Origin: a phage
Length of the DNA stretch: 64,000 nucleotides
Assembly: GCA_027263115.1 (NCBI GenBank)
Contig: GCA_027263115.1_3656.1
Direction: 5' to 3' (one strand)
Under the pieces are notes generated by a model, which made no database searches, was not told where the DNA came from, and saw only the letters and a program-made list of their open reading frames with translations. Shown in pieces: positions 2,541 through 61,089 of the stretch. The number at the start of each line of letters is the position of its first letter. Position 1 is the stretch's first letter. The position numbers and the translations under genes were made by a program.

Positions 2541-2850
2541 TATTTTAAGTTATCAGGTTGCCAGAGATCAGGAGGATTTCTAAAATGGATTTCCTCCTTT
2601 TGATATTTTACCTACCAGGATATTTTAAAATCCTTAGAAAATCAGAAAATGGATCGAAAACTAAAATGGATTTTTCAGAGCAGGCACGACGAGATGAACC
2701 ACTCATCCTATCGTCTGCACCATATTCCAGACCACCATTACAGATTTCCCGCACATGCTCACACCCTTCTACTAGAACTTCCCCCACTTACCCTTGACCT
2801 TTTATAGTAATAATCCAACCACTACCTTGAAGTTGTGGCGCAGCTTTCCA

Positions 2851-2938
2851 AGTACTCGATCTGTTTTTCGTTTCAAAGATTGAATTTTCTGAAAATTTTT
2901 CTCGATAAATTTCTCAGTACTCGATCTGTTTTTCGTTT
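2851..2938. repeat. direct repeat pair (22 bp AGTACTCGATCTGTTTTTCGTTT x2) in ORF-poor T-rich segment
   Basis: Identical copies at about 2851-2873 and 2916-2938, surrounded by related tttcgtttt / aaatggattt motifs. Confidence 0.6.
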
Positions 2939-3554
2939 TCTGAATCTGATTTTCTGGAAATCGTTCCGGCTCTCGACCTGAAATTTTTGGGGACGAAATC
3001 GATTTTTCGTTTTCAGAAATGGATTTTTAAAATTTCTATATGGGAATATTTTAGTGGATACTATTTTATAGGAAATTGTTACGGAGGGTAATTAGCGTGC
3101 TAATTAAATTTATTAAATGCGAGGAGTTCTCATTTAGAATTTTGAATGATAATCATTCTCGTTTGCAGAATAACGGGCAGGCCCGGTGATTGTCTCCCGG
3201 CCCCTACTGCCCCGGCTTGTTATTATAGTAACACACAGGACAAAGAAAGCAAGAAGTTTTTGCATAAATTTTTAGACGATAATGATAATCGTTCTCATTT
3301 CATGCAGCGCCCATCCCCGGTGGTTGTCTCCCCCGTCACCGGTGCCTGCCGTCCTTTCGATAGGTATATTTTGCCACCTGGCGGGGCCGCTGTCAACACT
3401 TTTCAAAAAAATTTCTAACCTGATGCGCTGACCGCTGCAACCTGGCGGGGCCAGCCTGGCAGGGCCTAACTGACCAGGTAGGAGAGAATGAAGGCTTGCA
3501 AACCTGGTGGGCCTATGCTATAGGATAGGTAACAATTGAAGAGGAGGTACAAAA

Positions 3555-3731
3555 ATGGAAGGTAATATGATCCCCCTGGAAAATGTAGCTATTAATGACG
3601 CTGAGGCTATCGCCCTGGTTGAAAAGGCTATGGCGGGAGCGTTGGAACATAAAGAAGAGTACGAAAAAATGATGGTTAACCTGGCAGGGGCGGCGGCTGG
3701 AGAATTCTACCCAAAAAATAATTTTAACTAA
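3555..3731 (+). CDS. small hypothetical protein (58 aa)
   Basis: ATG after GAGGAGG; below track cutoff; position confirmed relative to downstream ORF 3817. Confidence 0.5.
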   Translation: MEGNMIPLENVAINDAEAIALVEKAMAGALEHKEEYEKMMVNLAGAAAGEFYPKNNFN

Positions 3732-4558: not shown

Positions 4559-4954
4559 ATGAATAAGAACGTACGCCGCATCATGAACGAACTGGCAAAC
4601 GATGAAAAAATTATTGACATGCATTTATTCAACATTTGCCGCCGTTGTGTAACATATAACAACCGCGCCGCAAAAGCGCGTGAGATGAATGCGAAAGGCA
4701 CCTTAAAGCCCTTTCAGGTGGTTGTAAAATCTATAACCAGTGCAGCAGGCCAGGCGCATGACCACAACAACGAGAGCGCTAATATTGATCCGTCTTACGT
4801 AATGAAACGGATCCGGACTTGCAAGAATAAAGAGCAGGTGTATAACGTCATAGATTGGCTGGACTCCCTGGGTGATGTGGTTTACAATAGGTTTTCTGCA
4901 GCTATCGAGATCCAGCTTGACAGATTGGACGGGAAAGTACTGAAAACTTACTGA
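4559..4954 (+). CDS. hypothetical protein
   Basis: 131 aa, SD AAAGGAAAAAG. Confidence 0.6.
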   Translation: MNKNVRRIMNELANDEKIIDMHLFNICRRCVTYNNRAAKAREMNAKGTLKPFQVVVKSITSAAGQAHDHNNESANIDPSYVMKRIRTCKNKEQVYNVIDWLDSLGDVVYNRFSAAIEIQLDRLDGKVLKTY

Positions 4955-4955
4955 G

Positions 4956-5001
4956 TTTATTTTTAGATGGCCTTGACTCCAGGGCCATCAATAAAGTAAA
5001 C
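4956..5001. repeat. 46-bp intergenic repeat element, copy 1 (TTTATTTTTAGATGGCCTTGACTCCAGGGCCATCAATAAAGTAAAC)
   Basis: Near-identical copies at 5575-5620 and 9310-9355; contains ATGGCC/GGCCAT inverted repeat and TTGACT box. Confidence 0.7.
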
Positions 5002-5033
5002 TAACCACAGTTGAGCGGAAAGGGGGCTTAAAG

Positions 5034-5231: not shown

Positions 5232-5573
5232 ATGACTACTATGACCGCCGCAGAAAAAGCTATGCAGATCGCCGCGCTGAAAAAACAGATCGCAGACCTT
5301 GAGAATAAGATCGATAACTTTGAAATCGACGAGGACAAGTACGACGAAAACTATGATGAATGGTTAGACGAGATCTACGGCGAAATTATGATCGGAAACA
5401 TTTCTTTTCTTCCGTCGCGTATCCTCAAGGAGCTAGATCCTATCGCTTACCGCTGCGGATTTAGCGACTACATCGACAGCTTGGATATTGAGGACGATGA
5501 AGAATACCAGGAATTGCATACAGAGCTTGAAGAAGTGAAAGAAGAGCTTGCAGAACTGGAAGAAAACGAGTAA
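5232..5573 (+). CDS. highly acidic coiled-coil protein (DNA-mimic candidate)
   Basis: 113 aa, SD AAGGAG; roughly one third Asp/Glu with heptad-like N-terminus. Confidence 0.6.
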   Translation: MTTMTAAEKAMQIAALKKQIADLENKIDNFEIDEDKYDENYDEWLDEIYGEIMIGNISFLPSRILKELDPIAYRCGFSDYIDSLDIEDDEEYQELHTELEEVKEELAELEENE

Positions 5574-5574
5574 A

Positions 5575-5620
5575 TTTATTTTTAGATGGCCTTGACTCCA
5601 GGGCCATCAATAAAGTAAAC
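5575..5620. repeat. 46-bp intergenic repeat element, copy 2
   Basis: Identical to copy 1 over about 46 bp. Confidence 0.7.
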
Positions 5621-5662
5621 TTTATACTGTTAACACTGAACTAATGCATAGGAGTTAAAACC

Positions 5663-5908
5663 ATGGCAGCACTAATCACCAAATATTATGCCCCTACCAA
5701 CACCAAAAGCGCCCGTATCATGGTAAAAGGCTTCGGACGTAAAAAGGTTTACACCTGGGATTATGCCTTAGACACGGAAGACAACTACACCAACGCGATG
5801 ACCGATTTTATTAATGACCTGAACACGCGGATCTTGACAAATTATCAAATTACCGATATTGCCTATATAGGGGAAGGCGGGATCTGTTTTGTCGGTATCG
5901 TCAAATAA
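5663..5908 (+). CDS. hypothetical protein
   Basis: 81 aa, SD TAGGAG. Confidence 0.55.
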   Translation: MAALITKYYAPTNTKSARIMVKGFGRKKVYTWDYALDTEDNYTNAMTDFINDLNTRILTNYQITDIAYIGEGGICFVGIVK

Positions 5909-5983
5909 GCTGGTTTTTCGGTGGTCCTGGTAGCAGGGCCATCTATAAAGATAGTTTATCAACACAATGAAAGGAGAAAGTAC

Positions 5984-9106: not shown

Positions 9107-9307
9107 ATGAGCAACAATATCCGCGTTATTAACTTCAAAAAAGAAGAAAAAATTGCCGTGCTGATTGACGGTCAAGAAATCTTCAAGGGCTATTATGAAG
9201 ATCATCAAACGGCGATTAGTATCACTCGCGTGATTGGTTACCATAATTTTTACCCCCAAGGCGCTGAGGCGGCGGTTAAACGAATCAAAGAGATTGTAGG
9301 CCTGTAA
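9107..9307 (+). CDS. hypothetical protein
   Basis: 66 aa, SD AAAGGAGAAA. Confidence 0.55.
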   Translation: MSNNIRVINFKKEEKIAVLIDGQEIFKGYYEDHQTAISITRVIGYHNFYPQGAEAAVKRIKEIVGL

Positions 9308-9309
9308 AA

Positions 9310-9355
9310 TTTATTTTTAGATGGCCTTGACTTCAGGGCCATCAATAAAGTAAAT
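9310..9355. repeat. 46-bp intergenic repeat element, copy 3
   Basis: Two mismatches relative to copies 1 and 2. Confidence 0.65.
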
Positions 9356-9391
9356 TTAAACCCTGTTAAAAGACCACGCAGTTAACAAGGA

Positions 9392-9700
9392 GTGATAGAC
9401 ATGTTTATCCAGGCTAATAATCTTTATTTCTTTGATGGTCAGATCGTAGATGGTGTGGAAGTGGAGATCACCGGGTGCCCTGGCGGTCAGGCTATGACTT
9501 TTCGGAATAATGCCTTTGATGATTCTCATATCGTTATGAGAATGGAAGTTACGAAGCTGGACGACAAGAAAACACTTATTGACTATTCTGTGAAAGATCA
9601 TCCAGACTACCACATGATCTATGGTGATTTGTGCGTTGTTGACCGTGACAAGGTGGGCGGCATTGTGATCGCTATTGTGAACGATGTTTTCTCAAACTAA
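9392..9700 (+). CDS. hypothetical protein
   Basis: 102 aa, SD AAGGAG. Confidence 0.6.
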   Translation: MIDMFIQANNLYFFDGQIVDGVEVEITGCPGGQAMTFRNNAFDDSHIVMRMEVTKLDDKKTLIDYSVKDHPDYHMIYGDLCVVDRDKVGGIVIAIVNDVFSN

Positions 9701-10270: not shown

Positions 10271-10555
10271 ATGGCTATTGTTACCGCTGGCGATGTAGTA
10301 GAAATGGAAGCAAAATACTTAAAAGCGGGTATGCACATCCTACGGAATGATCAAGAGTTATTATTAACGATGGTTGACTATAATCCCGGCCAGGATTATC
10401 CAAGCATCGACTACTTTTTTGAGTATGTTGATGAAGAGTTGAAAGAGGATGAGGCATATTGCGGTGAGTTCTGCAACTTCTTTTGTCCTGATGAGGTTGT
10501 AAAGGTTATTTATCAACCTGGCGTACCTTTCCCACTGCACGCTATCAATAAATAA
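10271..10555 (+). CDS. hypothetical protein
   Basis: 94 aa, SD TAGGAG. Confidence 0.6.
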   Translation: MAIVTAGDVVEMEAKYLKAGMHILRNDQELLLTMVDYNPGQDYPSIDYFFEYVDEELKEDEAYCGEFCNFFCPDEVVKVIYQPGVPFPLHAINK

Positions 10556-10609
10556 ACCTGGCGGGGCCGAAAAGGCCCCAATTATGAAAATAAAGAGAGG
10601 TAAATCATC

Positions 10610-12560: not shown

Positions 12561-12577
12561 TATTTATAAACTACAAA

Positions 12578-12607
12578 ACAGGGCTTGCAATGGCCCTGTT
12601 TTTGTTA
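12578..12607 (+). terminator. rho-independent terminator
   Basis: ACAGGGC-loop-GCCCTGT hairpin followed by TTTTTGTT. Confidence 0.65.
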
Positions 12608-12687
12608 TACTTATTCTACGGCAGGCACCTGGCGACGGGGGGAGACAATCACCGGGCCTGCCTGTCATACAAGAACTATAAAAACCG

Positions 12688-14270: not shown

Positions 14271-14877
14271 TCTGATCTTCCCCCTACCATAAACGGCCCT
14301 ACCTGGCAAGTGGAATAATTGACGAGCCATCAACCCCACACACTGTACAAATATACATGTAAAATAACTATTGCATAACTTTTCATTGTGTGGTAGCAGG
14401 GCTATTTTTACCCGTTTTTCCTTCCAAAATTGCACGTAATGCAGCTATTGCACAAAATTTAACCTGATGCATATCTTCAGTGTCTTGTCAACAACTAAAA
14501 ATCTTTATAAGTCATGCACTTACATAACCACAAAAGCGTGCTCTACGTGAAAAATCGAGTATAACTATAGCCGCCAGATCTCAGAATTTACGTACGCTCA
14601 CCATTCTATAGTCTGCTAAGTATTTATTCCAACCATAGAATAACGGAATAGTCAATACCTGCATAAAATAATTATTCGTGTAAACTGCATAACATAAATC
14701 AGCTTAGGTGTCAACATTTTTCGTAAACAGTCTGAAATTATCACGATGAGTTATCATAAACAGAGAAATCTTTAGTCGTCTAATGTTTACTGTACGTTAC
14801 TATACTAACTGAAATCATTAGATGACTAATAGAAAGATAAGAAATAATTAACAATACAATTATTTTATCTGTAACAA

Positions 14878-15165
14878 TAAGGCAACTATGCAAACGAATG
14901 GCATGGCGCGACGGAGTCGCGACATAATATAAAAGCAGTAACCATCACCCCCGTGATAGTTTGTCTGCAATCTATTAATCAGATCATAGTTGCCTTGTAT
15001 TTAGTTAATCATGACATAACAAGCAAGGCAACTATAGATCTGCTAATAGTTGCCCTGCTTTTATATTATGTCATAGGAACGCCCGAAGGGGTGACCTAGT
15101 CACCTGGCATAGCCAGCGAAAGATTATTAACTTGGTAATAGTTATCATGCAAACGAATGGCATGG
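14878..15165. repeat. nested palindromic region: 18-bp inverted repeat (about 14921-14938 vs 15055-15072), 19-bp direct repeat ATGCAAACGAATGGCATGG x2, AGGCAACTAT/ATAGTTGCC inverted copies
   Basis: Reverse complements and direct copies read directly in the sequence; no ORF with a ribosome-binding site. Confidence 0.65.
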
Positions 15166-15179
15166 CTTATCATCTCTGT

Positions 15180-15420
15180 GTAAACAGTCAATCATGTAAA
15201 CTATTAGATATGTAAACAGTAAAGGGCGTGAACAGTAAGCGAGGGAATAGTAATAGCGTGAATAGTGACAGCGTAAACAGTGACAGCGTAAACAGTCAGG
15301 CATGTCAATTATGTCATATTGTGTCACCATTATGTCACTATTGTGTCACCAGTATGCCCAGTATGTCAATTGAGTCTAAAGTGTCAAAGGTGTCAGACAA
15401 GTTTTTCTCCTCTTTGTCAA
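15180..15420. repeat. tandem short-repeat arrays (GTAAACAGT family incl. 15-mer TGACAGCGTAAACAG x2; then 22-bp TTATGTCAYTATTGTGTCACCA x2 with further TGTCA units)
   Basis: Direct reading; track ORFs here are low-complexity artefacts of the repeats. Confidence 0.7.
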
Positions 15421-16866
15421 GTGCTGCATGAAAAATTTACAAGCTTGTATGGTAGCATTTTTGCGGCCCGTTTACATTCAGTGATGTATGTATAACCCTT
15501 GTTGTGTGGGAGTTTAGACGTCTAGACGGTTGGAAGTCTGCAGGTCAATATCTAATCTATCGGCTGCTAACTATATCCCACACAAATAGTAAGAAATATA
15601 ATTGTTATATGTGTAAACAGTAACTCATGTTATCAATCCCTGTATGGATCGCCAGTGGTGCGCATAATGGGTATTATGTTAAATTGCCCGTAATGATAAC
15701 AGTTCTCACAATGATAGGTATTCTCATTCATCCACACAAAATAGGTTGCAAATGTTGTGCCACTGTGTGAACGGCCTGGCCTATTAATTTCTCTCACTGC
15801 CTCGATATTTGAGGATTGTTATAAGAATGAGAAGTATTCCCATTCCGTCCGCCTGGCAGCGCTCCTGTAGGTCCTGCAAGGACTCTAGCTGAAAGCTAGA
15901 CCCTTCGGGCCTCCCTGTAGGTCAGGTCAAAATCGTGGCAGAACTGAGCCTGTTCAGATATTTCTGGCTGACTCTTCAGGTCTGTGTGGGAAAAGCCAAC
16001 CTCTCCGGCGGGGCAGGGGAGGGAGGTAAATTAAAAAATTTACGTGGTGTATGAAGCGCTCTTCAGGTAAGGCAGGTATTATGTGATGAAACCCTCTTCA
16101 GGCAATGATATTTGTGGGTGTGATATTTGCTGGAAAGCCAGATATGACGGGACTCCCGGCGGGGCAGGGGTAGTACAGACGGGGGAAATATGGGGATGTA
16201 GTTGGGGAAATTGATCAGGCAGGTAGAGTATGGAATATGTTACAAGTATGTTAAATATGGAGGTTGAATATCTGTAGGATTTGTGTGTAAAATCAAAGAC
16301 TTAAGTGGTGTTGTGGTATTTTCTATAAATAATTCAAGTTTAATAGGTAATATTTGCCTCTATCCACTTTGTGTGGTAAACAGATTCAGATGAGATTAGT
16401 TTACAAGTGTATACATAATATACAAATTAAAGATACAAGAAACCCCCCTCCCCCCTTCGGCTACCATTCACCTTTTCCTCTGACTGGTACTTAAACACTT
16501 ATTCAGACTCTTCAGGTTATCACCCATATATCATATGGCAGTGACTGGTGTCCTCCGGCCCCTCTTTCGTCACCCGTCCGCTTCGCCATGCTAATGCCAT
16601 AGCTAATGGTTCGGTTGTTCACCCTGTTCACTCAGGTGTATCTCTATACCCCTTCAAACCGAAGAGAACAGAAAACCCGAATTACTCGGTAAAAGAAAAG
16701 AGAAGAACTTAATTTTATCAGGATAGGCAAGAATGTCAAGGCATGACTGCTCACTAAACAAGCAAACAGTCATGTGTGGGAGGTAAGTGATTGTGGTGGT
16801 AGGAAATTTAGTTGAAAGATGTGTTATAGGTGCTTCCAGCACTTTAGCCGGGCAGCTAATTGTGTG

Positions 16867-17082
16867 TCAGTCCAGCGGTTCATCCTCTACTTCACTGAAA
16901 TCAATGTTCATGGTCTCTTCCCAACCATCGATCTCAGCACAAGAGTGGAGTTCTTTAGGGTTTACTCCCAAAGCCTCAGCAACAGAGTCTATATTTAACA
17001 CCTCTGGCAGGTATGATTCATCGAATTCAAGGTAAATCAGGCCACGAGTGTTGTCAGCTCCACCAAATATCTCTATCTTCAT
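16867..17082 (-). CDS. hypothetical protein (distal end of leftward block)
   Basis: 71 aa, ATG preceded by GAGGAG on minus strand; N-terminus MKIEI like several upstream paralogs. Confidence 0.5.
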   Translation of the reverse strand: MKIEIFGGADNTRGLIYLEFDESYLPEVLNIDSVAEALGVNPKELHSCAEIDGWEETMNIDFSEVEDEPLD

Positions 17083-17203
17083 AAAATCTCCTCTGGGAAT
17101 GAAAGTGTGAACAGGGTTTTATACGTTCTAATGCACAGGAATTATACACGTTTGCCTCTTCAGGCCATGCTTTAGCATGAGGAACCTGTGTGGGCTCGGT
17201 GCT

Positions 17204-17416
17204 TCATAGTCTACCACCTCTGAACTCTTCGTGCTCAGGCATAATAGAGAACCAGATATCTACGATGTCCTCCCACGTCAGGTCATCAGCCTCAGGATCT
17301 GTCTGGGACGAAGATGAAGAGTCCTCAGAATCTAAGTTTTCCTCTTTAACTGGCTCATCCAAGGGACATATGGTCACTCCTTCGGATGTCTCTTCAGATG
17401 CATGTGTGTTGATCAT
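17204..17416 (-). CDS. small acidic hypothetical protein
   Basis: 70 aa, weak SD GGGTGG; very Asp/Glu/Ser-rich. Confidence 0.4.
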   Translation of the reverse strand: MINTHASEETSEGVTICPLDEPVKEENLDSEDSSSSSQTDPEADDLTWEDIVDIWFSIMPEHEEFRGGRL

Positions 17417-17776
17417 GTTCCACCCGTGAGTATTCCGGCAACAGCCGCTATGGAAGTAATGATCATCAGGATCACCACTAAAACTTCAGACAATGTTCTC
17501 ATTGTGTATTCCATATTCTCCAAACTGTGTGTGGATACTATCACGGGAGCGGTAATGTGTCAACAGCAACGCCGCGAGGGTTTGGTTAAAATCCGAGCGT
17601 ATGGTGATTTGGGTCAAAACGGACGTGCGTTCTCGCTACGCTCGAAAGAGAGACTTGTTTGTAGAAAGCTCTTAAACGCTCTGTAACGAGATTATCTGTC
17701 CAAGGTATGCAATCGTGCACCAGATAAAGAAAAGGACGCCACAGAGCGTCCTAGGTGTCTTAAATTTGATATTTTG

Positions 17777-32610: not shown

Positions 32611-34734
32611 TCAGCAACCACAACTTCCGTAGTGCTTAACCCGTTCTATAACTTCCGCTTGCTTACCTTTATTGTAAGGACGGGAGTTTGGACTAGACAG
32701 GTACCCGGATACACGTCTGATCACACTGATCGTTCCCTCTTCATGGTTTCCACACTCTGGGCATACAAAGCCTTTAGCTGTTGCACTAAACTCACCAGAG
32801 AAACCACACTTGAGACATTTATCCACAGGTTGGTTAATACCAAAATACATAATGTGTTTATACCCGAAGTCAACAAGAGCCTCTAAAGCATCCAGGTTGT
32901 TTTTCAGATTTGGTGTCTCTACGTATCCGATGTTGCCACCAGAGGAGATCATAGCAAAACCTTCTTCATACTTCCACTTATCAAAAGGAGAGCTATTGAT
33001 CCATACTGGCTGATGGAAACTGTTGGTGAGATATTCATGCTCGTGCTTCAACACTTCAGGATATTCACGATCCAGACAGGTTGCAGCTTTATAGCATAGG
33101 CTCTCAGAAGGGGTGCCGTACAAGCTAAATGCTAGTCTACTTTCCTTCTTGTATCGCTCACAAGCATCTCTCATGTGCTGAAGGATTCCAAGAGCTAAAG
33201 CCTTGTCACCCTCTCTGCCCAAAATCTGACAGGTTTCATACACACCAATATACCCAATACTGATGGAAGCGTACCCGTCATAGAAGAGTTTATCAATACT
33301 CTCTTCAGGATCCAGGCGAGCAAGAGCGCCTTCACACCACATGATAGGGTTCTGCCCTGCCTTGGTGCCTTTCAGACGGTTAACCCTTACAAGGTGAGCC
33401 TCGTATGCAAGATCCAGATACTCGTCAAGAACGGCAAAGAAATCAACACCTTCCGTCTTAGCTTTTGCCGCAATCATTGGCAGGTTAAGACTAACAACAC
33501 CCAAGTTGAATCTGCCGAGGTATTTCTCCTCGCCTGTTTCCAAGTCATTGTATTTGCTAAGAAAACTCCGGCAACCCATGCTCGTTACTTTACCATCTGT
33601 CGAGCCTGTCACTTTACGATTTAGTGGAACAGAAACAAAGTCAGGATAAATCCGCTCTGCAGAGCATTCCAGAGCTAATCGTTTCAAATCATAGTTAGGA
33701 TCTCCAGGGTTCATGTTGACACCCTCTTCTAGGAAGAACAGCACTTTAGGGAACACAGGTGTGATACGTTCTTCACCAAGACCCATTTTGTGGACTTTCA
33801 AGTAATTTTTGGTAATCATTCTACCAAAGACCGAGGTATCCAGTCCTAAACTTAATGTGATGAATGGAGTTTGCCCGTTGACAGAAGTTAACGTATTGAT
33901 TTGATAGAGCAAAGTCTGCATGCTGTCAAATACGTCTTTATCTGTCATTTGCATTGCAACAGTCTCAGCATCTGGCAACCAATGTTCCTGGCAAAATTTA
34001 AGGTTCTTCTCATAGGTCGCTTCAGCATACTGTGCCAGATAATGATCAATATGGCTCATAGTCTGACCACCATATTGAGCACTAGCTACTGCACTAGAGA
34101 TTTGGCTAAGGATTGTTGTTGCAACCCCTATTGACTTCGGCTTACTGACATGGGCGTTACCAATGTTGAATCCGTTTTCCAACATATCTGGATAATTTAC
34201 CAAACAACAGTTTGTTAACGGACTGATCAAGTAGTCAAGATCATGCACATGGATGAAGCCTCTATTGTGCTCTTCTGAGACACGGTCTGGCAGGATCTGT
34301 GTTGATGCAAGGTGTTTGCTAAGGATGCCTGCAAGCAGGTCACGATGAGTGTGTACATGATTGGTAGGCTTATTTGCGTTTTCTTTTGTAAATTCATCAC
34401 AAGTGCGATCCAAGAAGCCACTAATATCTGCAAGCAGTTTTCCACCTGCCTCTCTATTATTATCTCTTGTCTGCCTATACTGGATGTATTCTCTGGCTGC
34501 ACATTTTAAACCCATATCCATAAGAGCGTCTTCAACAAGGATATGGATATTTTTTACAGAGATCGTGCACTGGTCGGTTGGTAGAGTGTTAGCAACAACT
34601 TCATTAACCGCGCAGGCGATCCGGTAAGCTTCTTCTTCAGTATGTCCAGACTCAAGTAAGGCGGACTCTGCCGCCTTGATCACCTTAATTCCGTTATAGA
34701 CCTCTTCTCTACCGTCCCGTTTTACAACTTTCAC
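32611..34734 (-). CDS. nrdD: anaerobic ribonucleoside-triphosphate reductase (class III)
   Basis: 707 aa; C-terminal glycyl-radical motif RRVSGYL and zinc-ribbon cysteines. Confidence 0.9.
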   Translation of the reverse strand: MKVVKRDGREEVYNGIKVIKAAESALLESGHTEEEAYRIACAVNEVVANTLPTDQCTISVKNIHILVEDALMDMGLKCAAREYIQYRQTRDNNREAGGKLLADISGFLDRTCDEFTKENANKPTNHVHTHRDLLAGILSKHLASTQILPDRVSEEHNRGFIHVHDLDYLISPLTNCCLVNYPDMLENGFNIGNAHVSKPKSIGVATTILSQISSAVASAQYGGQTMSHIDHYLAQYAEATYEKNLKFCQEHWLPDAETVAMQMTDKDVFDSMQTLLYQINTLTSVNGQTPFITLSLGLDTSVFGRMITKNYLKVHKMGLGEERITPVFPKVLFFLEEGVNMNPGDPNYDLKRLALECSAERIYPDFVSVPLNRKVTGSTDGKVTSMGCRSFLSKYNDLETGEEKYLGRFNLGVVSLNLPMIAAKAKTEGVDFFAVLDEYLDLAYEAHLVRVNRLKGTKAGQNPIMWCEGALARLDPEESIDKLFYDGYASISIGYIGVYETCQILGREGDKALALGILQHMRDACERYKKESRLAFSLYGTPSESLCYKAATCLDREYPEVLKHEHEYLTNSFHQPVWINSSPFDKWKYEEGFAMISSGGNIGYVETPNLKNNLDALEALVDFGYKHIMYFGINQPVDKCLKCGFSGEFSATAKGFVCPECGNHEEGTISVIRRVSGYLSSPNSRPYNKGKQAEVIERVKHYGSCGC

Positions 34735-35009
34735 TTTTTCTCTCCAAAACCATTCTTAACAAAAGAGATGAAATCGTCGGCACCGCCTATATGGACACTT
34801 TCAAGATTACTTTCTAAGAAGATCTGCGGCAACGTTCTGGGTACGATTGGACTGCACTTCTCAATAAGCTCTTCTTTTGTGTAACCCTCGCCAAGTGTCT
34901 TATATACAAAAGGCAGACCCTTACTGACTGCAAATTCTTTTGCTCTTACACAATGTGGGCAGTTATCTTTACCGTAAATAATAAAGAAAAAAGATTTTTC
35001 ACAGCTCAT
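34731..35009 (-). CDS. glutaredoxin/thioredoxin-like redoxin
   Basis: 92 aa; CPHC active site near N-terminus; adjacent to the nrd genes. Confidence 0.75.
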   Translation of the reverse strand: MSCEKSFFFIIYGKDNCPHCVRAKEFAVSKGLPFVYKTLGEGYTKEELIEKCSPIVPRTLPQIFLESNLESVHIGGADDFISFVKNGFGEKK

Positions 35010-35012
35010 GTA

Positions 35013-36101
35013 TTAAAACTCCCAAATTTCTTCTTCAGCGTCGTTAACAGTTGTGTTGACGCGGTAGTCAGTGTTCGACATTTCTTGGTTCGCCGTCTGT
35101 TGCAATGAAGGTTTCATCCACACCTGCATAAACGGTAGAGGGTCCTTTGTTGGCGGCACAAAGTCTTTGTCGATGTCGTAGTAATCATAAATCGGTGAGC
35201 AGTTATAGTCAACCCATTCTTTAAGCAACGGTGAGTTAAGACCTATAATCGCTCTTCCTTCGCTGAAAATATAGTCACTCCAACCGTACTCTTTGGTTCG
35301 TACTTCATCAAGAATCTCTTTTAACTCCCCTTTTATCTCAAGGAAGCTTTTCTCCCATGCGGGATCATTAAGCAGGATATCAATGATGGCAAAATCACCT
35401 TTCGAATGTAGCATTTCGTCAAGCATGATTTTTTGAACAAGCTGCGCCACCTGAACAAAGATACCCTGCTCAGCTACTGCGAAAGTGCATGCAAAACTTG
35501 CAATAAACTCAATACTTTCCAGAGCTAAAAGTGCAAAAAGCGCTCTAAGAATGCATTTCCGCACAACATCTTCTTCAACACTAGAAGGATCCAGTCGGTA
35601 TTTTGCACCAATAACCTCAAGCTCTTGCATGTATTTGACAATAACGCCGGATCTGCTCAGAACGTTTTGGTTTTCCTGAATCTCTTCTATAATCTCACGG
35701 GCATTGGGGAGGCATTGTCTAACAATCTCTGAGTAAGTTAGTGCGTGAAGAACTTCAATCTCTGACTGTTTCATCAATAGAGTGAAAAGCTCACTATTGG
35801 TGATAAATGGTGAAAACAGACAAATGATAGATCTTGCCGCAACGCTATCAGCCTCCCATTGCCACATCAAGGTCTGCACCATCACGTCATAAGTTGACTT
35901 TGAGCATGTTACAAAATCTGAAATAGATTGCGACAAATCCACTTCATCCTCTGCCCAGTCTTGTTCTTTTTGTTTTTTGTATAGTTCAAACAGTTGTGGA
36001 TATTTTTTGTTGATAGAGTCGTACATACCCATTTGCTGTCCTAGAAACAGCGGATAGTCACCAGTTTTATGAGCGGTGTTCTCAGCATTAAATACAGCCA
36101 T
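35013..36101 (-). CDS. nrdB: ribonucleotide reductase class Ia beta subunit
   Basis: 362 aa; ferritin-like di-iron protein immediately downstream of nrdA. Confidence 0.85.
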   Translation of the reverse strand: MAVFNAENTAHKTGDYPLFLGQQMGMYDSINKKYPQLFELYKKQKEQDWAEDEVDLSQSISDFVTCSKSTYDVMVQTLMWQWEADSVAARSIICLFSPFITNSELFTLLMKQSEIEVLHALTYSEIVRQCLPNAREIIEEIQENQNVLSRSGVIVKYMQELEVIGAKYRLDPSSVEEDVVRKCILRALFALLALESIEFIASFACTFAVAEQGIFVQVAQLVQKIMLDEMLHSKGDFAIIDILLNDPAWEKSFLEIKGELKEILDEVRTKEYGWSDYIFSEGRAIIGLNSPLLKEWVDYNCSPIYDYYDIDKDFVPPTKDPLPFMQVWMKPSLQQTANQEMSNTDYRVNTTVNDAEEEIWEF

Positions 36102-36107
36102 TATTCT

Positions 36108-36135
36108 AACCTCTAAAATGGGGCCGAAGCCCCTT
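36108..36135 (-). terminator. hairpin (possible attenuator/terminator) between nrdA and nrdB
   Basis: GGGGC-TTCG-GCCCC stem followed by ATTTTAG on minus strand. Confidence 0.4.
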
Positions 36136-36140
36136 TAAAA

Positions 36141-38456
36141 TTATAGTGCACAACTTTCGCAATACTGATCTTCAACTGAACTATCTGCATTCAAAGGATA
36201 GTTCTTTCTGGTTTCATCTTCAGCCTGTTTCTTGGCATGAAGTTCCTCTGCCAAGGAGTCGCCAGCACCAACCCTAGAGTTTAAATAATACCATGTCTTC
36301 ATTCCGAATTTAGTGGCACGGATAAGGTACCCTAGCTGCTCCTTCATTGAAATTTTACCATCTTTCAACTTGGTGTAGTCTATGTACAAATCCGCGCTGA
36401 TTGCCTGACCTGTGAATTTTTGAATCACAGCATACATATCGATCATGTCGTTAGTATCAACGTCCCAAGCCGAAGTGTAATACTCTTTCAACTCATCATA
36501 GTCAGGAACGATAAACAGCACCTGCCCTTGTGGCGACTTTTTAAAGATAATGTGCTCACGGACAGGATAGACCCCGTTAGTGGTGTTTGTTGCCAGCGAA
36601 GAGCTTTCATTAGGCATATATGCTTCAAGAACGCTATTACGTAGCCCACCATTTTCAATGATTTCTTTACGTAACCCTTCCCAATCCTGTTTAAGAGAAG
36701 GATCTTTCACCACGCTATCGACCTCTTTGTTATAGGTGTCGATTGGTAACCAACCTTCTGGATATTTTGTTTTATGCATCCACTCGCAGACACCACGCTC
36801 TTTTGCCAACCGTAAACTTGCCTTATGCAAGCTGTAGCTGTGAAGTTCTGCAAGATCGTGAACGAGCTGTTTACTTTCAGGAGATCCGTAAGTAACCTTG
36901 TGGCTGGCAATAAAATGTGCAACATTGGTAAGGCCAACCCCGATGGATCTGCGTTTTTTAACTGTGCTTTCCATATTTTCATACGGATATGTCATGATTT
37001 CCATAACATTGTCAATCATAAGCACCGTATAGTATGCAACATCCTCATACTCCTCTGGAGTAACCCTCCCAGCTACAAGAGATGACAGGAAGCACAATGC
37101 AACCTCTCCATCATCAGCATCGTACTTGAAGATATTACGCATATCTGAATAGCCTTTTGTCGGGAGGGCTATTTCTGCACACAGGTTACTTGAATAGATC
37201 ACATCTTTAAAAGGTGTATGTCTATTCATCTCATCTGTCCAGTATACATACAGCCTTCCCACCTCAGTACGCTGCGTGATCAGTTCAACAGCAAGATCTC
37301 TGGCCCGGATCCATGTTTTAGGAATACTGTCATCTTTAGCAATACGATCAACCTCTGCATCAAACTCCTCCATAGACATGGTGAAGATACCCTCATGCAG
37401 TTGAGGCGCGTGCTTATAAGAAACAAGCATCCAATCCAAATTCTTAGCCACACGGTTGATAAACGACCTATTAATACCGATGGAGTAGTCCATGGTGTTG
37501 ATTCTTTTTGAAGCAACAGTCATAGGGTTTCTCAAACGGATTAGCTCATCAATCTGCGGGTCTAGTGCAAGAAATGATACTGTTGCAGAACCGCCACGTG
37601 ATTGTTGTCTGTTCTCCTTAACCCCAGCATCAATACCTCGATAATATGGAATCTTACCCATGTGTTTAATAGTGTTACCACGAACACCATCGCCTGCAGA
37701 TCTTGATGATAAATAGTAGCCGATACCTGCTTGGTTAACCGTCATTGTGTACGCAACTTCACGTGCCACACCAATAGATTTTGCTGTATCGTCAGCTTTT
37801 ATTACACAACAAGATGCATACCCTGTCTTACCTGTGCGCAGCCCGTTTAAGTACGGTGTCGGGGCATTGATCTTTAAGTCGGACAGATAAGTGTATAATT
37901 TTACAACATCGTTGATACGACGTTCTTTCGGCATATTCTTCATGACAGCCATTGCTATCCCCATAAACATCATCTGGGGAGATTCAAACAAGGTGTCTTT
38001 AAGAGTATCCTTGATCCCGTATTTGTCGCGAAACTGTTTAAGGACTGCATAGCCATAACCGAGATCTTTACTGTGGTCAATAACAGCGTCTAAAGTGTTT
38101 AGCTCGGTAAAGCTATAGCCCATATCCTCCCAATACCCTTTCTCAACCATGGTATTGTAAAATGATGGTAAGGAAGGGATCTTTGTAAACCCTCCAAAAG
38201 CCTCTTTATAAATCTGACCAATAAGAACACGACCAGCCATACGGGAATGTGCTTCGTCTTTACGGCTAACACAGGAGTCTATGATAGCTTGGTTAACTTC
38301 TTTGGTTGTACATCCATCATACAGTCGTTTGTATGCATCCAGTGCAATATGTGACCAATTGCCGTTACCGTCGTCACCGAAAATAGCTGCCTTATTTAAA
38401 CGTTCTGGATCGAATGCTACCTCACATCCGTTGCTTTTAATTACCTTGGTGATCAA
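36141..38456 (-). CDS. nrdA: ribonucleotide reductase class Ia alpha subunit
   Basis: 771 aa; N-terminal ATP-cone-like region, active-site NLCAEI, C-terminal CESC; TTG start after GGAGGAAG. Confidence 0.9.
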   Translation of the reverse strand: MITKVIKSNGCEVAFDPERLNKAAIFGDDGNGNWSHIALDAYKRLYDGCTTKEVNQAIIDSCVSRKDEAHSRMAGRVLIGQIYKEAFGGFTKIPSLPSFYNTMVEKGYWEDMGYSFTELNTLDAVIDHSKDLGYGYAVLKQFRDKYGIKDTLKDTLFESPQMMFMGIAMAVMKNMPKERRINDVVKLYTYLSDLKINAPTPYLNGLRTGKTGYASCCVIKADDTAKSIGVAREVAYTMTVNQAGIGYYLSSRSAGDGVRGNTIKHMGKIPYYRGIDAGVKENRQQSRGGSATVSFLALDPQIDELIRLRNPMTVASKRINTMDYSIGINRSFINRVAKNLDWMLVSYKHAPQLHEGIFTMSMEEFDAEVDRIAKDDSIPKTWIRARDLAVELITQRTEVGRLYVYWTDEMNRHTPFKDVIYSSNLCAEIALPTKGYSDMRNIFKYDADDGEVALCFLSSLVAGRVTPEEYEDVAYYTVLMIDNVMEIMTYPYENMESTVKKRRSIGVGLTNVAHFIASHKVTYGSPESKQLVHDLAELHSYSLHKASLRLAKERGVCEWMHKTKYPEGWLPIDTYNKEVDSVVKDPSLKQDWEGLRKEIIENGGLRNSVLEAYMPNESSSLATNTTNGVYPVREHIIFKKSPQGQVLFIVPDYDELKEYYTSAWDVDTNDMIDMYAVIQKFTGQAISADLYIDYTKLKDGKISMKEQLGYLIRATKFGMKTWYYLNSRVGAGDSLAEELHAKKQAEDETRKNYPLNADSSVEDQYCESCAL

Positions 38457-39253: not shown

Positions 39254-40237
39254 TTAACCTTTCACGAAGTGGTTATTAAGCAGTTGTCTGTGCTGAACCC
39301 ACCCACAAAAGTTGGCAGACCAGAATTTACCATCACGGTCTTGATGGGTTACACCTTCCTGCCAAACACAGCTGTCTTGTGTGATTTCACATGAAGACAG
39401 GTAGTAGTTTAAACGTTCCATTGCGTTATCGTGATCCATAGGTGTTGCCTGGTGCTCGTAAGGGCTTGCATGGATACGATCCCCACCAATCAATTTTTTA
39501 GCCACACTGTCTGCCTTTTCAAACGTGCTGTCAATATTTCGATAAGATACTTGTGCACAGCAACTAGCACTGATAGACAGAGCTTCTTTAGTATCGAGAA
39601 TGCAGAGCTTTCCTTCTGTGTCACGTACAGCGTAGTTAAACTCTCCGTCCAAATAAACGTGCTCTACATATGGAGTGTGCCATTGCCCTGGTTTAAGGAT
39701 TTCAGGAGTGCTATTCACAAGAGCTTCCCACATACAATTAGCCAACATCTGAATCGTAGGATCCGCATCGTGCCAGCAACGGAGATGGAAAAAATTATTC
39801 CACTCTGTGCTTGTTACAACTGTTTTCATGCGCTGAAACGGCTCCACTAAGCGGTTACATACTTGTTTATGGTAACCAGCAAGGGCGAACTTCTCTGCAT
39901 GCCAAGCGGCGTTTTTTGCAGCTTCTTTCCAAAACTCTTCAGGGGTTAGCTCCATGTCAGTGTACTCTACACGGATCTTTTGATCGTGTTCTCCACCATC
40001 TTCCATACCTCGCTTATTTACACCGAAGCGAACTGGCATTGCCGGATTCTCCACAATCTGTTGCAGCATCTTGCCGACAGGTACTGCACGGGAAGACATG
40101 GCGTTTCGGCTGAACACTCGGTGCGTCATAAGCTCTGAGTGAATAATTCGAGGATACTCTAGTTCAAAAGTGGTGATACGCTTACCTTTCTCGGAAATGC
40201 TGTCAGCAATAATCTTTGCAGTGCACAGTTTTAGCAT
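39254..40237 (-). CDS. thyX: flavin-dependent thymidylate synthase-like protein (ThyX family)
   Basis: 327 aa; THRVFSRNAMSSRAVP matches the ThyX RHRxxSxxxxSxR signature except first Arg is Thr; SD AGGAGA. Confidence 0.7.
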   Translation of the reverse strand: MLKLCTAKIIADSISEKGKRITTFELEYPRIIHSELMTHRVFSRNAMSSRAVPVGKMLQQIVENPAMPVRFGVNKRGMEDGGEHDQKIRVEYTDMELTPEEFWKEAAKNAAWHAEKFALAGYHKQVCNRLVEPFQRMKTVVTSTEWNNFFHLRCWHDADPTIQMLANCMWEALVNSTPEILKPGQWHTPYVEHVYLDGEFNYAVRDTEGKLCILDTKEALSISASCCAQVSYRNIDSTFEKADSVAKKLIGGDRIHASPYEHQATPMDHDNAMERLNYYLSSCEITQDSCVWQEGVTHQDRDGKFWSANFCGWVQHRQLLNNHFVKG

Positions 40238-48936: not shown

Positions 48937-50220
48937 TCATTCCAGAACCTCCCAAGTGTCTGGGTTAACATTTCGGACGCAGATACCGACAGGGAATTGG
49001 TAGTTGTTGTCTTCTGTCCTTGCTTGATATTTGAAGGTGACAAACTTGCCGATCATTTCCTGCATCCTGTCATAGCTACGCTCCTCGTGCGTGCCTTTCA
49101 TCTTCATTTTAACAACAACACCTTCCTTGTCAACACAGATAAGAACACCTTCATCATTCTTATCTTTCTCAACGTCAATAACTTTCACCTCTGCGTCGTT
49201 GAACTTTTTCCATTTCAATGCTTCAGATGTTCGCTGACCATACTCATATTTACCACAGAAGTTACGCATAATGGTACCTTCATATCCCTCAGACATAAAT
49301 ATACCAACAGACTCTTCGCACCGATCAACTGTGTATGCAATCTCTGCATCAACAACCTTAATATGATCAAGCATCAAAGAAGCAATAGCACCATTTGCCT
49401 CCATAAGATCCTTACAGCGTCCAGACTCTGTTTCAGGATCCCACCACACCTTATCGCTAGGAATATCGAAAATATGATACTCTAAGTCGTAGCTGCAGTA
49501 CCCTCCGTAACGCAAATCATCACGAACAGGCTCAACATCAACAGGAATGTCCATCTTGTTGAAGTTTTTGTATGTTGCTAAACCTGCTTTAATCGCAGCC
49601 TGACGGCGTTTTTTATCTGCCTTGTAGTCTTTATCGATCTCGGCCTGAATTTCTTCCTGTGTGCGCCACCGTTTAGCAAGAGACACTATTTTCTGCAGAG
49701 GCAGACCATGAATATAGAGCTCTCCGTCGAGCTGTTTAATCCCGGTGGTTAGGTGGAAAGAGCGAAGTTGCTCCAGAAGCTTCCCTTGAATAGGGTAGGA
49801 CTTATTACCACGGGAAATAAATTTAGGCTCACCATTCTGGAAAACAACAAGTAGACGAAGGCCATCTAACTTACGCAAGATCCAGCAAGGTAATTTAAGT
49901 GCCTTGCCACGCTTCAGGTAGTCATGCACCAACATGGGTAAAAGATCAACACCTTGCTCACAATCTTCCATACTCTCCACGTACCCGAGTCGGACCTGTT
50001 TTTCCCACTTACTGATCGCTTCCAGCTCGGCCTGTTGCTCAGCTGTAGTTTCATTAGCGCGACCCACGTTCTTAGGTGTGCAGATCGTCTCTTTGTATTG
50101 CAGTTTACCATCAAGCTTGCCAAACTCTACGATAACCTTATCACCATCCGTGAATACTTTCCACTGTTGGTGGCTGCCATCTTTGTTCAGTGCGTACAGT
50201 GTTGTTTTGATCTGATGCAT
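48937..50220 (-). CDS. ATP-dependent DNA ligase
   Basis: 427 aa; motif I KLDGLR, motif IV EGYEGTIMR, motif V LKWKK. Confidence 0.7.
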   Translation of the reverse strand: MHQIKTTLYALNKDGSHQQWKVFTDGDKVIVEFGKLDGKLQYKETICTPKNVGRANETTAEQQAELEAISKWEKQVRLGYVESMEDCEQGVDLLPMLVHDYLKRGKALKLPCWILRKLDGLRLLVVFQNGEPKFISRGNKSYPIQGKLLEQLRSFHLTTGIKQLDGELYIHGLPLQKIVSLAKRWRTQEEIQAEIDKDYKADKKRRQAAIKAGLATYKNFNKMDIPVDVEPVRDDLRYGGYCSYDLEYHIFDIPSDKVWWDPETESGRCKDLMEANGAIASLMLDHIKVVDAEIAYTVDRCEESVGIFMSEGYEGTIMRNFCGKYEYGQRTSEALKWKKFNDAEVKVIDVEKDKNDEGVLICVDKEGVVVKMKMKGTHEERSYDRMQEMIGKFVTFKYQARTEDNNYQFPVGICVRNVNPDTWEVLE

Positions 50221-57526: not shown

Positions 57527-57601
57527 GCCCTGTTAGCTTAGTGGATAAAGCAGCGGCCTTCTAAGCCGTTGACACTGGTTCGAGTCCAGTACGGGGTGCC
57601 A
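57527..57601 (+). tRNA. tRNA-Arg (anticodon TCT)
   Basis: Hand-folded cloverleaf: 7-bp acceptor, D-arm GCTT/AAGC, anticodon loop CTTCTAA, T-loop TTCGAGT, encoded CCA. Confidence 0.75.
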
Positions 57602-57605
57602 AATT

Positions 57606-57692
57606 GGGGAGTTATCCCGTAGAGGTAGCGGTGTAGACTGTAAATCTATTGTCATTGCGACTCGGGTGGTTCGACTCCACCACTCCCCACCA
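57606..57692 (+). tRNA. tRNA-Tyr (anticodon GTA), long variable arm
   Basis: Acceptor GGGGAGT/ACTCCCC, anticodon loop CTGTAAA, T-loop TTCGACT, CCA; 87 nt. Confidence 0.65.
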
Positions 57693-57805
57693 AATTTATA
57701 TTTTAGATGCATAAATAATACAGATAATGGCATTGATATTTATCGTCGTTTATACTAGTCACTAACTGCTCGAAAATCAGTGTCATTATCAGTATAATTT
57801 ACAAA

Positions 57806-57896
57806 GGAGGGTAGGGAGCAATGGTGCTCAAGCGGTCTTGAAAACCGTCCCATTGAGGATGACTCGATGATGGTTCGATTCCATTACTCTCCGCCA
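57806..57896 (+). tRNA. tRNA-Ser (anticodon TGA), long variable arm
   Basis: Acceptor GGAGGGT/ACTCTCC, anticodon loop CTTGAAA, T-loop TTCGATT, CCA; 91 nt. Confidence 0.65.
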
Positions 57897-57994
57897 CATT
57901 GTTGACCTTGTAATTAAGCGAAAGCCGGAAGCAGAACCGGATTATCAAATGTTACAGTCGTCATCGCCGACTAGCAACATGGTCAACATACTGA

Positions 57995-58093
57995 GCTAGG
58001 TAAGCCCTTTGGCAAGGGCGAGGATTTTTAATCCTGAAAATAGACGAGGTAGTCGTTGAATACATAGATGGTTCGATTCCATCACCTAGCACC
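57995..58093 (+). tRNA. atypical tRNA-like element (possible tRNA-Lys TTT with about 25-nt insertion, or pseudo-tRNA)
   Basis: Perfect 7-bp acceptor GCTAGGT/ACCTAGC, canonical T-arm GATGG-TTCGATT-CCATC, D-arm GCCC/GGGC, TTT-containing loop; about 99 nt; no encoded CCA. Confidence 0.35.
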
Positions 58094-58098
58094 TTTTT

Positions 58099-58174
58099 GC
58101 TGATGTAGCACAATTGGTAGTGCAATTGATTTGTAATCAATAGGTTGCAGGTTCAAGTCCTGCCATCAGCACCA
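58099..58174 (+). tRNA. tRNA-Thr (anticodon TGT)
   Basis: Acceptor GCTGATG/CATCAGC, D-arm GCAC/GTGC, anticodon loop TTTGTAA, T-loop TTCAAGT, CCA. Confidence 0.75.
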
Positions 58175-58175
58175 T

Positions 58176-58250
58176 GGCCCTGTAGCTGGAAGGTTCAAGC
58201 AAGCGACTCATAATCGCCAGACGGTGGTTCAATTCCACCCAGGGCCACCA
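58176..58250 (+). tRNA. tRNA-Met or tRNA-Ile2 (anticodon CAT), elongator-type
   Basis: Acceptor GGCCCTG/CAGGGCC with paired 1-72, anticodon loop CTCATAA, T-loop TTCAATT, CCA. Confidence 0.65.
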
Positions 58251-58261
58251 AATAGTAGATA

Positions 58262-58338
58262 CTCCGCGTAGCTCAGCTTGGTAGAGCGCCTGATTTGGGA
58301 TCAGGAGGTCGAGTGTTCGAATCACTCCGTGGAGACCA
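58262..58338 (+). tRNA. tRNA-Pro (anticodon TGG)
   Basis: C1-G72 acceptor, D-arm GCTC-AGCTTGGTAG-AGC, anticodon loop TTTGGGA, T-loop TTCGAAT, CCA. Confidence 0.75.
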
Positions 58339-59158: not shown

Positions 59159-59442
59159 GAGTTGCTACACTGTTTATTGCGTGCTTGTTATTATGCGGGT
59201 GTGCAACCAGTGTTGAGAAAGAATACAAGATTGACCCTCCAGATGTAGGAAGGTTGATTGTTAAACCCCCAGAAGGTGCCATGAAACCACCTGCTAAAGC
59301 TATGCCTTTGAAGAAAGGTGCGCCAGATGCAGTGAACTCTGGCATTATGAGGGATAATAATCTGTCTTGTAGCAATGATAGAGCTAAATTGATCATTTTG
59401 CAAGACTATATTAGAACACTGTTTCCAAAGGAGAGAGGTTAA
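59155..59442 (+). CDS. o-spanin (Rz1-like proline-rich lipoprotein)
   Basis: 95 aa; signal with LLLCGC lipobox-like site; Pro-rich DPPDVGRLIVKPPEGAMKPPAKAMP; SD CAGGAGGA. Confidence 0.6.
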   Translation: MRVATLFIACLLLCGCATSVEKEYKIDPPDVGRLIVKPPEGAMKPPAKAMPLKKGAPDAVNSGIMRDNNLSCSNDRAKLIILQDYIRTLFPKERG

Positions 59443-60989: not shown

Positions 60990-61089
60990 GTGTTGCCAAT
61001 CTTAATTAGATGTGGTACAATAAAGTAATTGGAGATACTAGCCCTCTGACGAGGGCTATTTTGTTATACTGTTTTGAGGGGTAAAGCTT

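Follow-up and report, generated by a model that had tools for sequence, protein, structure and literature searches.

The stretch of phage DNA considered here, 64,000 nucleotides (nt) of contig GCA_027263115.1_3656.1 (GenBank assembly GCA_027263115.1) and hereafter called the window, comes from an rV5-like lytic coliphage of the genus Vequintavirus, a myovirus. At positions 2560-3540 it holds a conserved non-coding control region of rV5-like phages, where putative operators for the host iron repressor Fur lie among predicted promoters and GC-rich elements. The segment 2400-3700 is 99.7% identical to Escherichia Vequintavirus phages and is covered in one piece by 114 public records. In phage JeffSchatz, the genes for primase-helicase and DNA polymerase lie ~8 kb upstream of the counterpart, which sits within a long array of small rightward genes; the JeffSchatz annotation gives the gap three short hypothetical open reading frames (ORFs) only, and that of phage pangalan gives it nothing. 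In addition, 16-18 GenBank records (MG0656xx) titled "Campylobacter phage" are 92-99% identical to the E. coli phage region, which suggests mislabelled hosts or carried-over coliphages.

A conserved region without genes

The region had been called ORF-poor in an earlier sequence-only reading, and comparison with relatives agrees. Five of the six longer ORFs in the gap have lost their start codon, or have gained stops or frameshifts, in at least one of seven Vequintavirus relatives, while the sixth (3282-3431) has no ribosome-binding site and stays intact simply because the DNA is near-invariant. The small ORFs annotated in the gap were rejected as genes because they are disrupted in relatives. 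Across eight Vequintavirus sequences, 84-96% of alignment columns are invariant in 2885-3460 versus 55-60% in the upstream gene, and the stretch 2664-2860 is highly variable (24-40%). The high invariance, combined with the lack of any conserved ORF, marks the region as non-coding and under strong selection. Outside the genus, distant BLAST matches align only over ~150 nt around the features named below as Fur box B and the first GC-rich element. Finally, neither Rfam nor ARAGORN returned an RNA family, transfer RNA (tRNA) or transfer-messenger RNA for the region or for related loci (eight in the case of Rfam).

Fur boxes

The features of the right half of the region, together with their partner near 12.6 kb, are as follows.

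3115-3135, Fur box A (AAATGCGAGGAGTTCTCATTT), 16.9 bits
3142-3171, plus strand, candidate promoter P1 (TTGAAT-18-CAGAAT), spacer holding box B, transcription predicted from ~3178
3144-3164, Fur box B (GAATGATAATCATTCTCGTTT), 25.1 bits
3174-3215, minus strand, GC-rich leader element copy 1 (RNA sense CCGGGGCAGUAGGGGCCGGGAGACAAUCACCGGGCCUGCCCG), orthologues in 14/14 representative genomes
3222-3252, minus strand, predicted promoter P_L1 (-35 TTGCTT at 3252-3247, 19-nt spacer, -10 TATAAT at 3227-3222), predicted start ~3215
3260-3289, plus strand, weak candidate promoter P1' (TTGCAT-18-GATAAT, 8/12 consensus) with box C over its -10 and start site
3280-3300, Fur box C (TAATGATAATCGTTCTCATTT), 24.9 bits
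3304-3352, minus strand, GC-rich leader element copy 2, 96% invariant columns
3368-3396, minus strand, predicted promoter P_L2 (TTGACA-17-CAAAAT with upstream TG, 10/12 consensus), predicted start ~3361
12573-12611, plus strand, predicted promoter of copy 3, -35 TTGCAA (12585-12590) in the loop of a terminator hairpin and extended -10 TGtTATACT (12603-12611), start ~12618
12619-12666, plus strand, copy 3 of the GC-rich leader element (the "inverted copy"), 5'-terminal in a predicted transcript toward the gene at 12771

The boxes were scored with a matrix built from 21 operators under Fur chromatin immunoprecipitation sequencing peaks of Fur-repressed E. coli genes (PMC10219339, Table S6). The training sites themselves score 13-24 bits, the best reaching 24.0 (22.8 when left out of the matrix), so that boxes B and C outscore every operator in the training set; the best of 30 shuffled windows reached 16.8 bits, which box A just exceeds. 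A search with the 19-bp consensus GATAATGATAATCATTATC, allowing up to three mismatches, gave two matches in the window against 0.05 expected. Box B agrees with the consensus at 15/19 positions (3142) and box C at 17/19 (3278), each a palindrome just left of a GC-rich element. Both follow the 7-1-7 inverted-repeat geometry of Fur sites (TGAnAAT-N-ATTnTCA over 15 nt). ArgR and other palindromic operators were considered and set aside: the 15-nt half-site spacing fits Fur and not ARG boxes (14 nt).

The likeness to host operators extends to individual sites. Positions 3147-3165 match the mntH operator of E. coli K-12 at all 19 nt, and the identity to the fhuA site covers 16 nt. The layout of the mntH promoter recurs too, in candidate promoter P1: a -35 of the TGAAT type comes first, the spacer holds the box, and a -10 follows at once. 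The 19-nt identity came from the operator table, being too short for the genome search, in which 3105-3350 had no match at E <= 0.01 among 5,426 E. coli genomes. Fur-repressed operators have a median position of -20 relative to the start site (PMC10219339). In the phage, the candidate promoters that overlap boxes at -35/-10 positions, P1 and P1', are weak and not universal, whereas relative to the well-conserved predicted promoters the boxes fall at +50 to +100.

The boxes are also conserved by position. All 12 distinct loci from other genera (Certrevirus, Mydovirus, Seunavirus, Phapecoctavirus and uncultured relatives, covering Vequintavirinae and Stephanstirmvirinae) carry 1-4 boxes of 17.5-27 bits at the equivalent place, mostly with 29-bp spacing. 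No prior report of Fur boxes in rV5-like phages, lytic phages or T5 was found in the searchable literature.

Promoters and the GC-rich leader

The two GC-rich islands (75% GC in 3173-3216 and 73% in 3304-3352, amid DNA of 28-31% GC) were noticed at the outset as repeated elements with a reverse-complement match near 12.6 kb, and this stands: both islands contain the 16-mer CCGGTGRTTGTCTCCC (at 3183 and 3317), which is found once more at 12640 on the minus strand, and the exact inverted match GGGAGACAATCACCGGGCCTGCC (3176-3198 versus 12640-12662) runs over 23 nt, far beyond chance (~3e-5 such matches expected in 64 kb). Copies 1 and 2 had, however, been taken for plus-strand features. Comparison with relatives favours the minus strand, on which the conserved predicted promoters sit.

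Measured from a common anchor in the 12 other-genus loci, a minus-strand sigma-70 promoter is predicted at 224-238 nt in 12/12 and a second at 70-73 nt in 11/12. The P_L2 position thus keeps a promoter in every one of these loci, and the P_L1 position reads TTGCAA, TTGACC or TTGATC, a 16/17-nt spacer and TATATT, GATAAT or TATTAT in 11 of the 12, with diverged spacers. The leftward promoters of these genera use the hexamers TTGCAA, TTGACG or TTGACA and TATATT, CATAAT or TATACT, spaced 16-18 nt apart, and their GC-rich spacer sequences have diverged while hexamers and spacer length were held. This pattern is the mark of functional promoters. The conservation spans two phage subfamilies, and a GC-rich element begins 7-16 nt after each promoter. 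Promoter spacers in the region are unusually GC-rich across all genera. A GC-rich motif, ACCTGGCGGGGCC, is repeated at 3372-3388, 3436-3452 and 10552-10568, and its copy at 3372 serves as the common spacer of promoter-like sites that overlap and diverge.

Several features bear on the element as a possible leader. All three copies read ...GGGGGAGACAAYCACCGG... at the predicted transcript start, and it is the primary sequence GAGACAAWCACCG that stays invariant. Folded singly, the leader strand gives hairpins with z-scores of -1.8 to -2.6 (-2.6 for copy 1, -2.4 for copy 3), versus +0.1 for the opposite strand, with GAGACAATCACC as the predicted loop. GC skew, which is locally negative, was counted toward the same strand. 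An outer stem drawn by eye shows G-C to A-U and G-U changes, with a register that shifts between genera.

Other identities for these sequences were tried and rejected. A sigma-70 pause signal (GACAAT) in the leader is not conserved in other genera, and a by-eye likeness to type I-E or I-F CRISPR repeats was too weak. Likewise, a small minus-strand protein running across the GC-rich element and box B meets an in-frame stop ahead of the box in Phapecoctavirus and a 2-nt indel in Klebsiella phages; it has no start codon in the window, and tandem boxes cannot all be coding.

In the genera other than Vequintavirus, a strongly conserved block of ~110 nt behind P_L2 takes the place of box C and copy 2. 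It lies ~100-230 nt right of the last Fur box on the minus strand (RNA sense ...CGCCACCCCACGGCGAAAAGGCGGGGCUAACGUACC...GGUGGAUCGCCGGUAGUUCG...), one of its pairs covaries from G-C to A-U (6 versus 6 sequences), and a pseudoknot is possible. Rfam has no entry for the block, which is not tRNA-like either and does not occur in the window.

The inverted copy at 12.6 kb

Copy 3 begins 7 nt after an extended -10, whose promoter is built into a terminator hairpin (fold z = -4.3 for 12573-12611). The same arrangement of terminator, extended -10 and orthologous element is repeated in Certrevirus DU_PP_IV and in phAPEC8, and in DU_PP_IV a 21.4-bit Fur box follows shortly downstream of the copy-3 orthologue. 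A four-copy, 51-nt intergenic repeat elsewhere in the window (4953-5003, 5572-5622, 5907-5957 and 9307-9357) forms a stem-loop, GATGGCC...GGCCATC, with TTGAC in its loop and TAAAGT after it; this terminator-promoter layout resembles the promoter-early stem-loops of T4-type phages, and the copy-3 promoter is of equal design.

An exact inverted match flanking 9.4 kb of DNA is what a substrate for inversion or recombination of that segment might look like, and the sequence-only reading had raised this along with the alternative that the copies mark regulatory sites. Inversion is now extremely improbable. The shared stretch is just 23-29 nt long; the sequence runs colinearly through the two junctions in 114 and 105 related genomes, and no inversion was seen; six of the six loci that span both copies have them in the same order and orientation; and in Certrevirus and Phapecoctavirus the orthologous copies face the same way with respect to the genes beside them. 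Eleven ORFs scanned (between 3555 and 8190 and at 12771), a part of the intervening set, have no Pfam recombinase domain. The inverted orientation is best explained by the direction of transcription: one and the same predicted promoter-leader module stands at the head of oppositely directed units, so that the 9.4-kb "inverted repeat" is a further instance of this module in reverse and not a site of recombination. The regulatory alternative has fared well, since the elements adjoin predicted sigma-70 promoters and Fur boxes and are conserved across phage genera, yet the Fur boxes themselves, the most striking feature of the region, had been overlooked.

A proposed iron-responsive switch

These features together suggest that the region is an iron-responsive control hub, with face-to-face promoters wired to host Fur. 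We hold this to be slightly more likely than not; Fur binding and the transcripts are both inferred from sequence. In iron-replete cells, Fur-Fe(II) would occupy the boxes; bound box B would cover the -35 and spacer of P1 in an mntH-like geometry, and box C the -10 of P1', keeping rightward transcription toward the gene at 3555 repressed for as long as iron is plentiful. A scan found no plus-strand terminator between 3020 and 4239, and rightward transcripts could therefore reach that gene. P_L1 and P_L2 would fire constitutively in the opposite direction, yielding short G-rich leader RNAs complementary to the first ~38 nt of the P1/P1' transcripts. The predicted starts of P1 (~3178) and P_L1 (~3215) do oppose each other across the GC-rich element, with ~38 nt of complementarity, and such a face-to-face arrangement could bring transcriptional interference and antisense control as further layers, in the manner of RNA-IN/RNA-OUT of IS10. 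Since the boxes lie 50-100 nt downstream of the leftward starts, bound Fur could also block leftward transcription into the repeat block on the left.

A link between iron and phage DNA metabolism is plausible given that the window encodes the iron enzymes NrdA and NrdB (aerobic ribonucleotide reductase) and NrdD (anaerobic), at 32611-38456 on the minus strand. Other genes of the window include a ThyX-like gene (39254-40237), a DNA ligase gene (48937-50220), a cluster of six tRNA genes (57527-58335) and the terminase and portal genes (59442-62646).

Several points weigh against such a switch. All of the promoters are consensus predictions. P_L1 has a perfect -10 (TATAAT), but in the window its -35 is poor and its spacer 19 nt long; P1 matches 8/12 of the consensus, is present in 7/14 representative genomes and, in the Klebsiella-phage group, has a -10 without the critical A. 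Copy 3 in the window has neither a Fur box nor a convincing opposing promoter. The genes downstream of the region match only PHROGs of unknown function, so that no iron-related output can be named. Turning to the leader, RNAalifold found no consensus structure for the copy-1 orthologues, hand-drawn stems change register between genera, and one Vequintavirus variant disrupts an inner pair of copy 2 without compensation. For these reasons, the GC-rich element could act as DNA rather than as RNA.

The proposed hub can be set beside several known systems. Fur-repressed host promoters such as those of mntH, fhuA and fecI share with it the 7-1-7 palindrome and the layout of candidate promoter P1, in which the box lies in the spacer and a -10-like hexamer comes directly after it. 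The phage boxes differ in belonging to a virulent phage, in forming tandem arrays phased at 29 bp, in facing a predicted constitutive convergent promoter and in having no iron-related gene downstream. The stx1 and diphtheria tox genes are iron-regulated phage cargo genes and, as here, such genes place a host iron-repressor operator on phage DNA. A Fur box is likewise found upstream of sitABCD on lambdoid prophages (PMC6969025). Those systems concern one accessory gene on temperate phages, whereas here the phages are lytic and belong to two subfamilies, and the boxes occupy a conserved, untranslated core hub.

The face-to-face promoters pIN/pOUT of IS10 and pR/pL of coliphage 186 produce transcripts that overlap by a few tens of nucleotides. 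Their convergent promoters, overlapping transcripts and one partner in the form of a short hairpin RNA are all matched by the predicted phage arrangement; there is no sequence relationship, however, and the regulated partner here would be under a host metal sensor. Finally, in lambda the same leader element follows shortly after oppositely directed promoters, at nutL and nutR, and the copies likewise appear as inverted repeats kilobases apart. In contrast to the nut sites, the rV5-like elements have no boxA/boxB consensus, and no N-like protein or antitermination effect is known here.

Direct repeats, and possible roles in replication or Fur titration

The left half of the region, into which P_L1 and P_L2 point, contains the following.

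2570-2609, plus strand, terminator-like hairpin (AGGAGGA...TCCTCCT) with a T-run, closing the upstream rightward operon
2582-2673, three copies of the AAAATGGAT motif (2582, 2646, 2663), with a fourth, AAATGGATTT, at 3017-3026
2602 and 2619, GATATTT repeats
2691-2841, poorly conserved spacer, 24-40% invariant columns and indels
2842-3027, iteron block of three ~47-nt units (2842, 2907, 2981), 31% GC

The hairpin at 2570-2609 (-15.1 kcal/mol, z = -2.3) is invariant among Vequintavirus relatives. The direct repeats described in the sequence-only reading were recovered: a 22-bp repeat placed at about 2851 and 2916 is the exact 22-mer GTACTCGATCTGTTTTTCGTTT at 2852-2873 and 2917-2938, inside the three-copy family of ~47 nt, and the recurring short motifs are the AAAATGGAT copies, plus AAATGGATTT at 3017. 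Within 64 kb, AAAATGGAT(Y)(K) is confined to its three positions, where 0.41 matches would be expected by chance. The RAAATGGWTTT and GATATTT repeats recur at the equivalent place in other genera, and the iteron core GKWCTCGATC..TTTTC has 2-5 copies in every Vequintavirinae genus examined.

Such an architecture also invites an interpretation as a replication origin, in which an initiator would bind the AT-rich iteron block (2842-3114, with the GATATTT and AAATGGATTT repeats to the left), the tandem leftward promoters would transcribe into the block and prime or activate initiation, the G-rich leader would favour R-loops, and Fur would gate firing by iron. There are precedents in the primary origin of T7, where two promoters precede an AT-rich segment, and in the R-loops of T4 oriF and oriG. 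Three classes of direct repeat in 31% GC DNA, conserved in kind and order across genera, speak for an origin, as do the conserved predicted promoters aimed into the block, the T7-type DNA polymerase and primase-helicase ~8 kb upstream and the dependence of the phage's deoxynucleotide supply on iron enzymes. Other observations speak against it. The cumulative GC skew changes course not at the region but at ~16-17.5 kb, together with the switch in gene orientation; neither DnaA boxes nor GATC sites show enrichment, and no initiator gene was identified next to the region. Copy 3 stands at the head of an ordinary mRNA, and an origin could equally well lie in a second, larger gap rich in repeats at 14.4-17.7 kb. 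On balance, we consider an origin at this site unlikely, while giving it appreciable weight.

That second gap (14430-17700) is a larger ORF-poor, repeat-rich region where the rightward array ends, leftward genes begin and GC skew changes sign. Its repeats include iterons of GTAAACAGT and GTGTCAC at 15177-15400, a perfect inverted repeat of 18 nt (14921/15055) and the GC-rich TCCGGCGGGGCAGGGG (16004, 16155). It also holds a second cluster of Fur-like sites (15691, 15709 and 15825, scoring 17.8, 17.6 and 14.1 bits; 15.69-15.85 kb), which lies in non-coding DNA and is conserved in Vequintavirus; one pair of these boxes is annotated "repeat_region" in phage pangalan.

A Fur decoy offers another explanation. 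A phage genome at high copy number could titrate Fur, derepress the iron-uptake regulon of the host and thereby feed the iron-dependent ribonucleotide reductases, in which case the position of the boxes relative to promoters would be secondary; the idea is compatible with the iron-responsive switch. In the Fur titration assay, one Fur box carried by a multicopy plasmid is enough to derepress fhuF::lacZ (PMC3145626), and the phage boxes score at or above the best host operators, stand in tandem (1-4 by genus) and are joined by the cluster at 15.69-15.85 kb on a genome that encodes NrdA, NrdB and NrdD. A pure decoy, however, would have no need for the fixed position and phase that the boxes keep relative to promoters and leader in every genus, and some genera carry one box only. 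A decoy role is accordingly judged improbable, though it deserves some weight.

Fur-type operators in other phages

An exact-match scan of IMG/VR for the 19-nt Fur-type palindrome AATGA[GT]AATCATTCTCATT found at least 120 stretches, some of which may be prophages or hold bacterial flanks. Among the matches listed, 46 of 118 loci have at least two sites of at least 19 bits within 400 bp, in clusters of 2-8 boxes, and several T5-like contigs of 108-121 kb carry 3-5 boxes beside DnaA boxes. On a 347-kb uncultured contig, a terminator, an extended -10 promoter and a short leader ending in CCTGCCTGCTATTC precede the box, and this contig has 13 nt (GAATAGCAGGCAG) in common with a Vequintavirinae-like contig. 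Neither it nor a 90-kb IMG/VR contig has a near match among isolated phages.

T5 itself provides a parallel of an untranslated, repeat-packed phage region. Repeat Region 3 of T5, untranslated over ~1.2-1.7 kb, is better conserved than nearby genes and holds direct repeats and palindromes, with an inverted partner 3.2 kb away (10.1101/866236). When T5 (AY587007.1) was scored with the E. coli Fur matrix, palindrome G (9576-9596) reached 26.8 bits, palindrome I (9611-9631) 22.5 bits and palindrome E / direct repeat C (9472-9492) 19.3 bits. These palindromes adjoin the first-step-transfer shear point at 9618, in Repeat Region 3. The preprint on the T5 region treats DnaA boxes and makes no mention of Fur or iron (10.1101/866236).

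It is tempting to see the rV5-like region as a counterpart of the T5 injection-stop region, at which a nucleoprotein "knot" of host factors on untranslated repeats would control DNA entry or processing. The shared architecture (10.1101/866236), that is, untranslated, repeat-packed and highly conserved DNA with an inverted partner, and the scoring of palindromes G, I and E as Fur boxes lend the comparison some appeal. The window differs, however, in its GC-rich leader and in having no counterpart of the paired DnaA boxes, fixed terminal-repeat position and nearby nick of T5; DnaA boxes are not enriched in the region, and no T5 A1/A2 homologue turned up, with no search aimed at them having been made. 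Furthermore, a T4-type large terminase and public records that open at many different points suggest that there is no fixed entry end. An injection-stop function for the rV5-like region is thus very unlikely.

A broader generalization is possible, and we advance it tentatively, at somewhat short of an even chance: virulent enterobacterial phages of unrelated families may hold near-consensus Fur operator arrays in their most conserved untranslated hubs. The families in question would be the rV5-like Vequintavirinae with Stephanstirmvirinae, the group of T5 and its relatives, in which the annotated but long-unexplained palindromes G, I and E would be the boxes, and the uncultured viruses represented by the 90-kb and 347-kb contigs.

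Concluding remarks

Host-repressor operators are already known for the cargo genes of temperate phages, while a conserved tandem array of predicted maximal-affinity Fur operators in the core control region of lytic phages is undescribed in the searchable literature. If the generalization holds, lytic phages would read the iron status of the host through Fur, or manipulate it by titration, as a general and hitherto undescribed layer of infection control. For T5, it would supply a concrete candidate for the host factor of the injection-stop region and make a 50-year-old question testable. The rV5-like phages are used in therapy collections, and a preprint reports Vequintavirinae as the commonest "persistent virulent phages" of bacterial isolates and as their largest cluster (bioRxiv 10.1101/2024.12.31.630880). 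If the iron-responsive switch is borne out, these phages would couple early transcription or replication to iron, a metal that is scarce in the gut and in infected tissue and that their own ribonucleotide reductases need.

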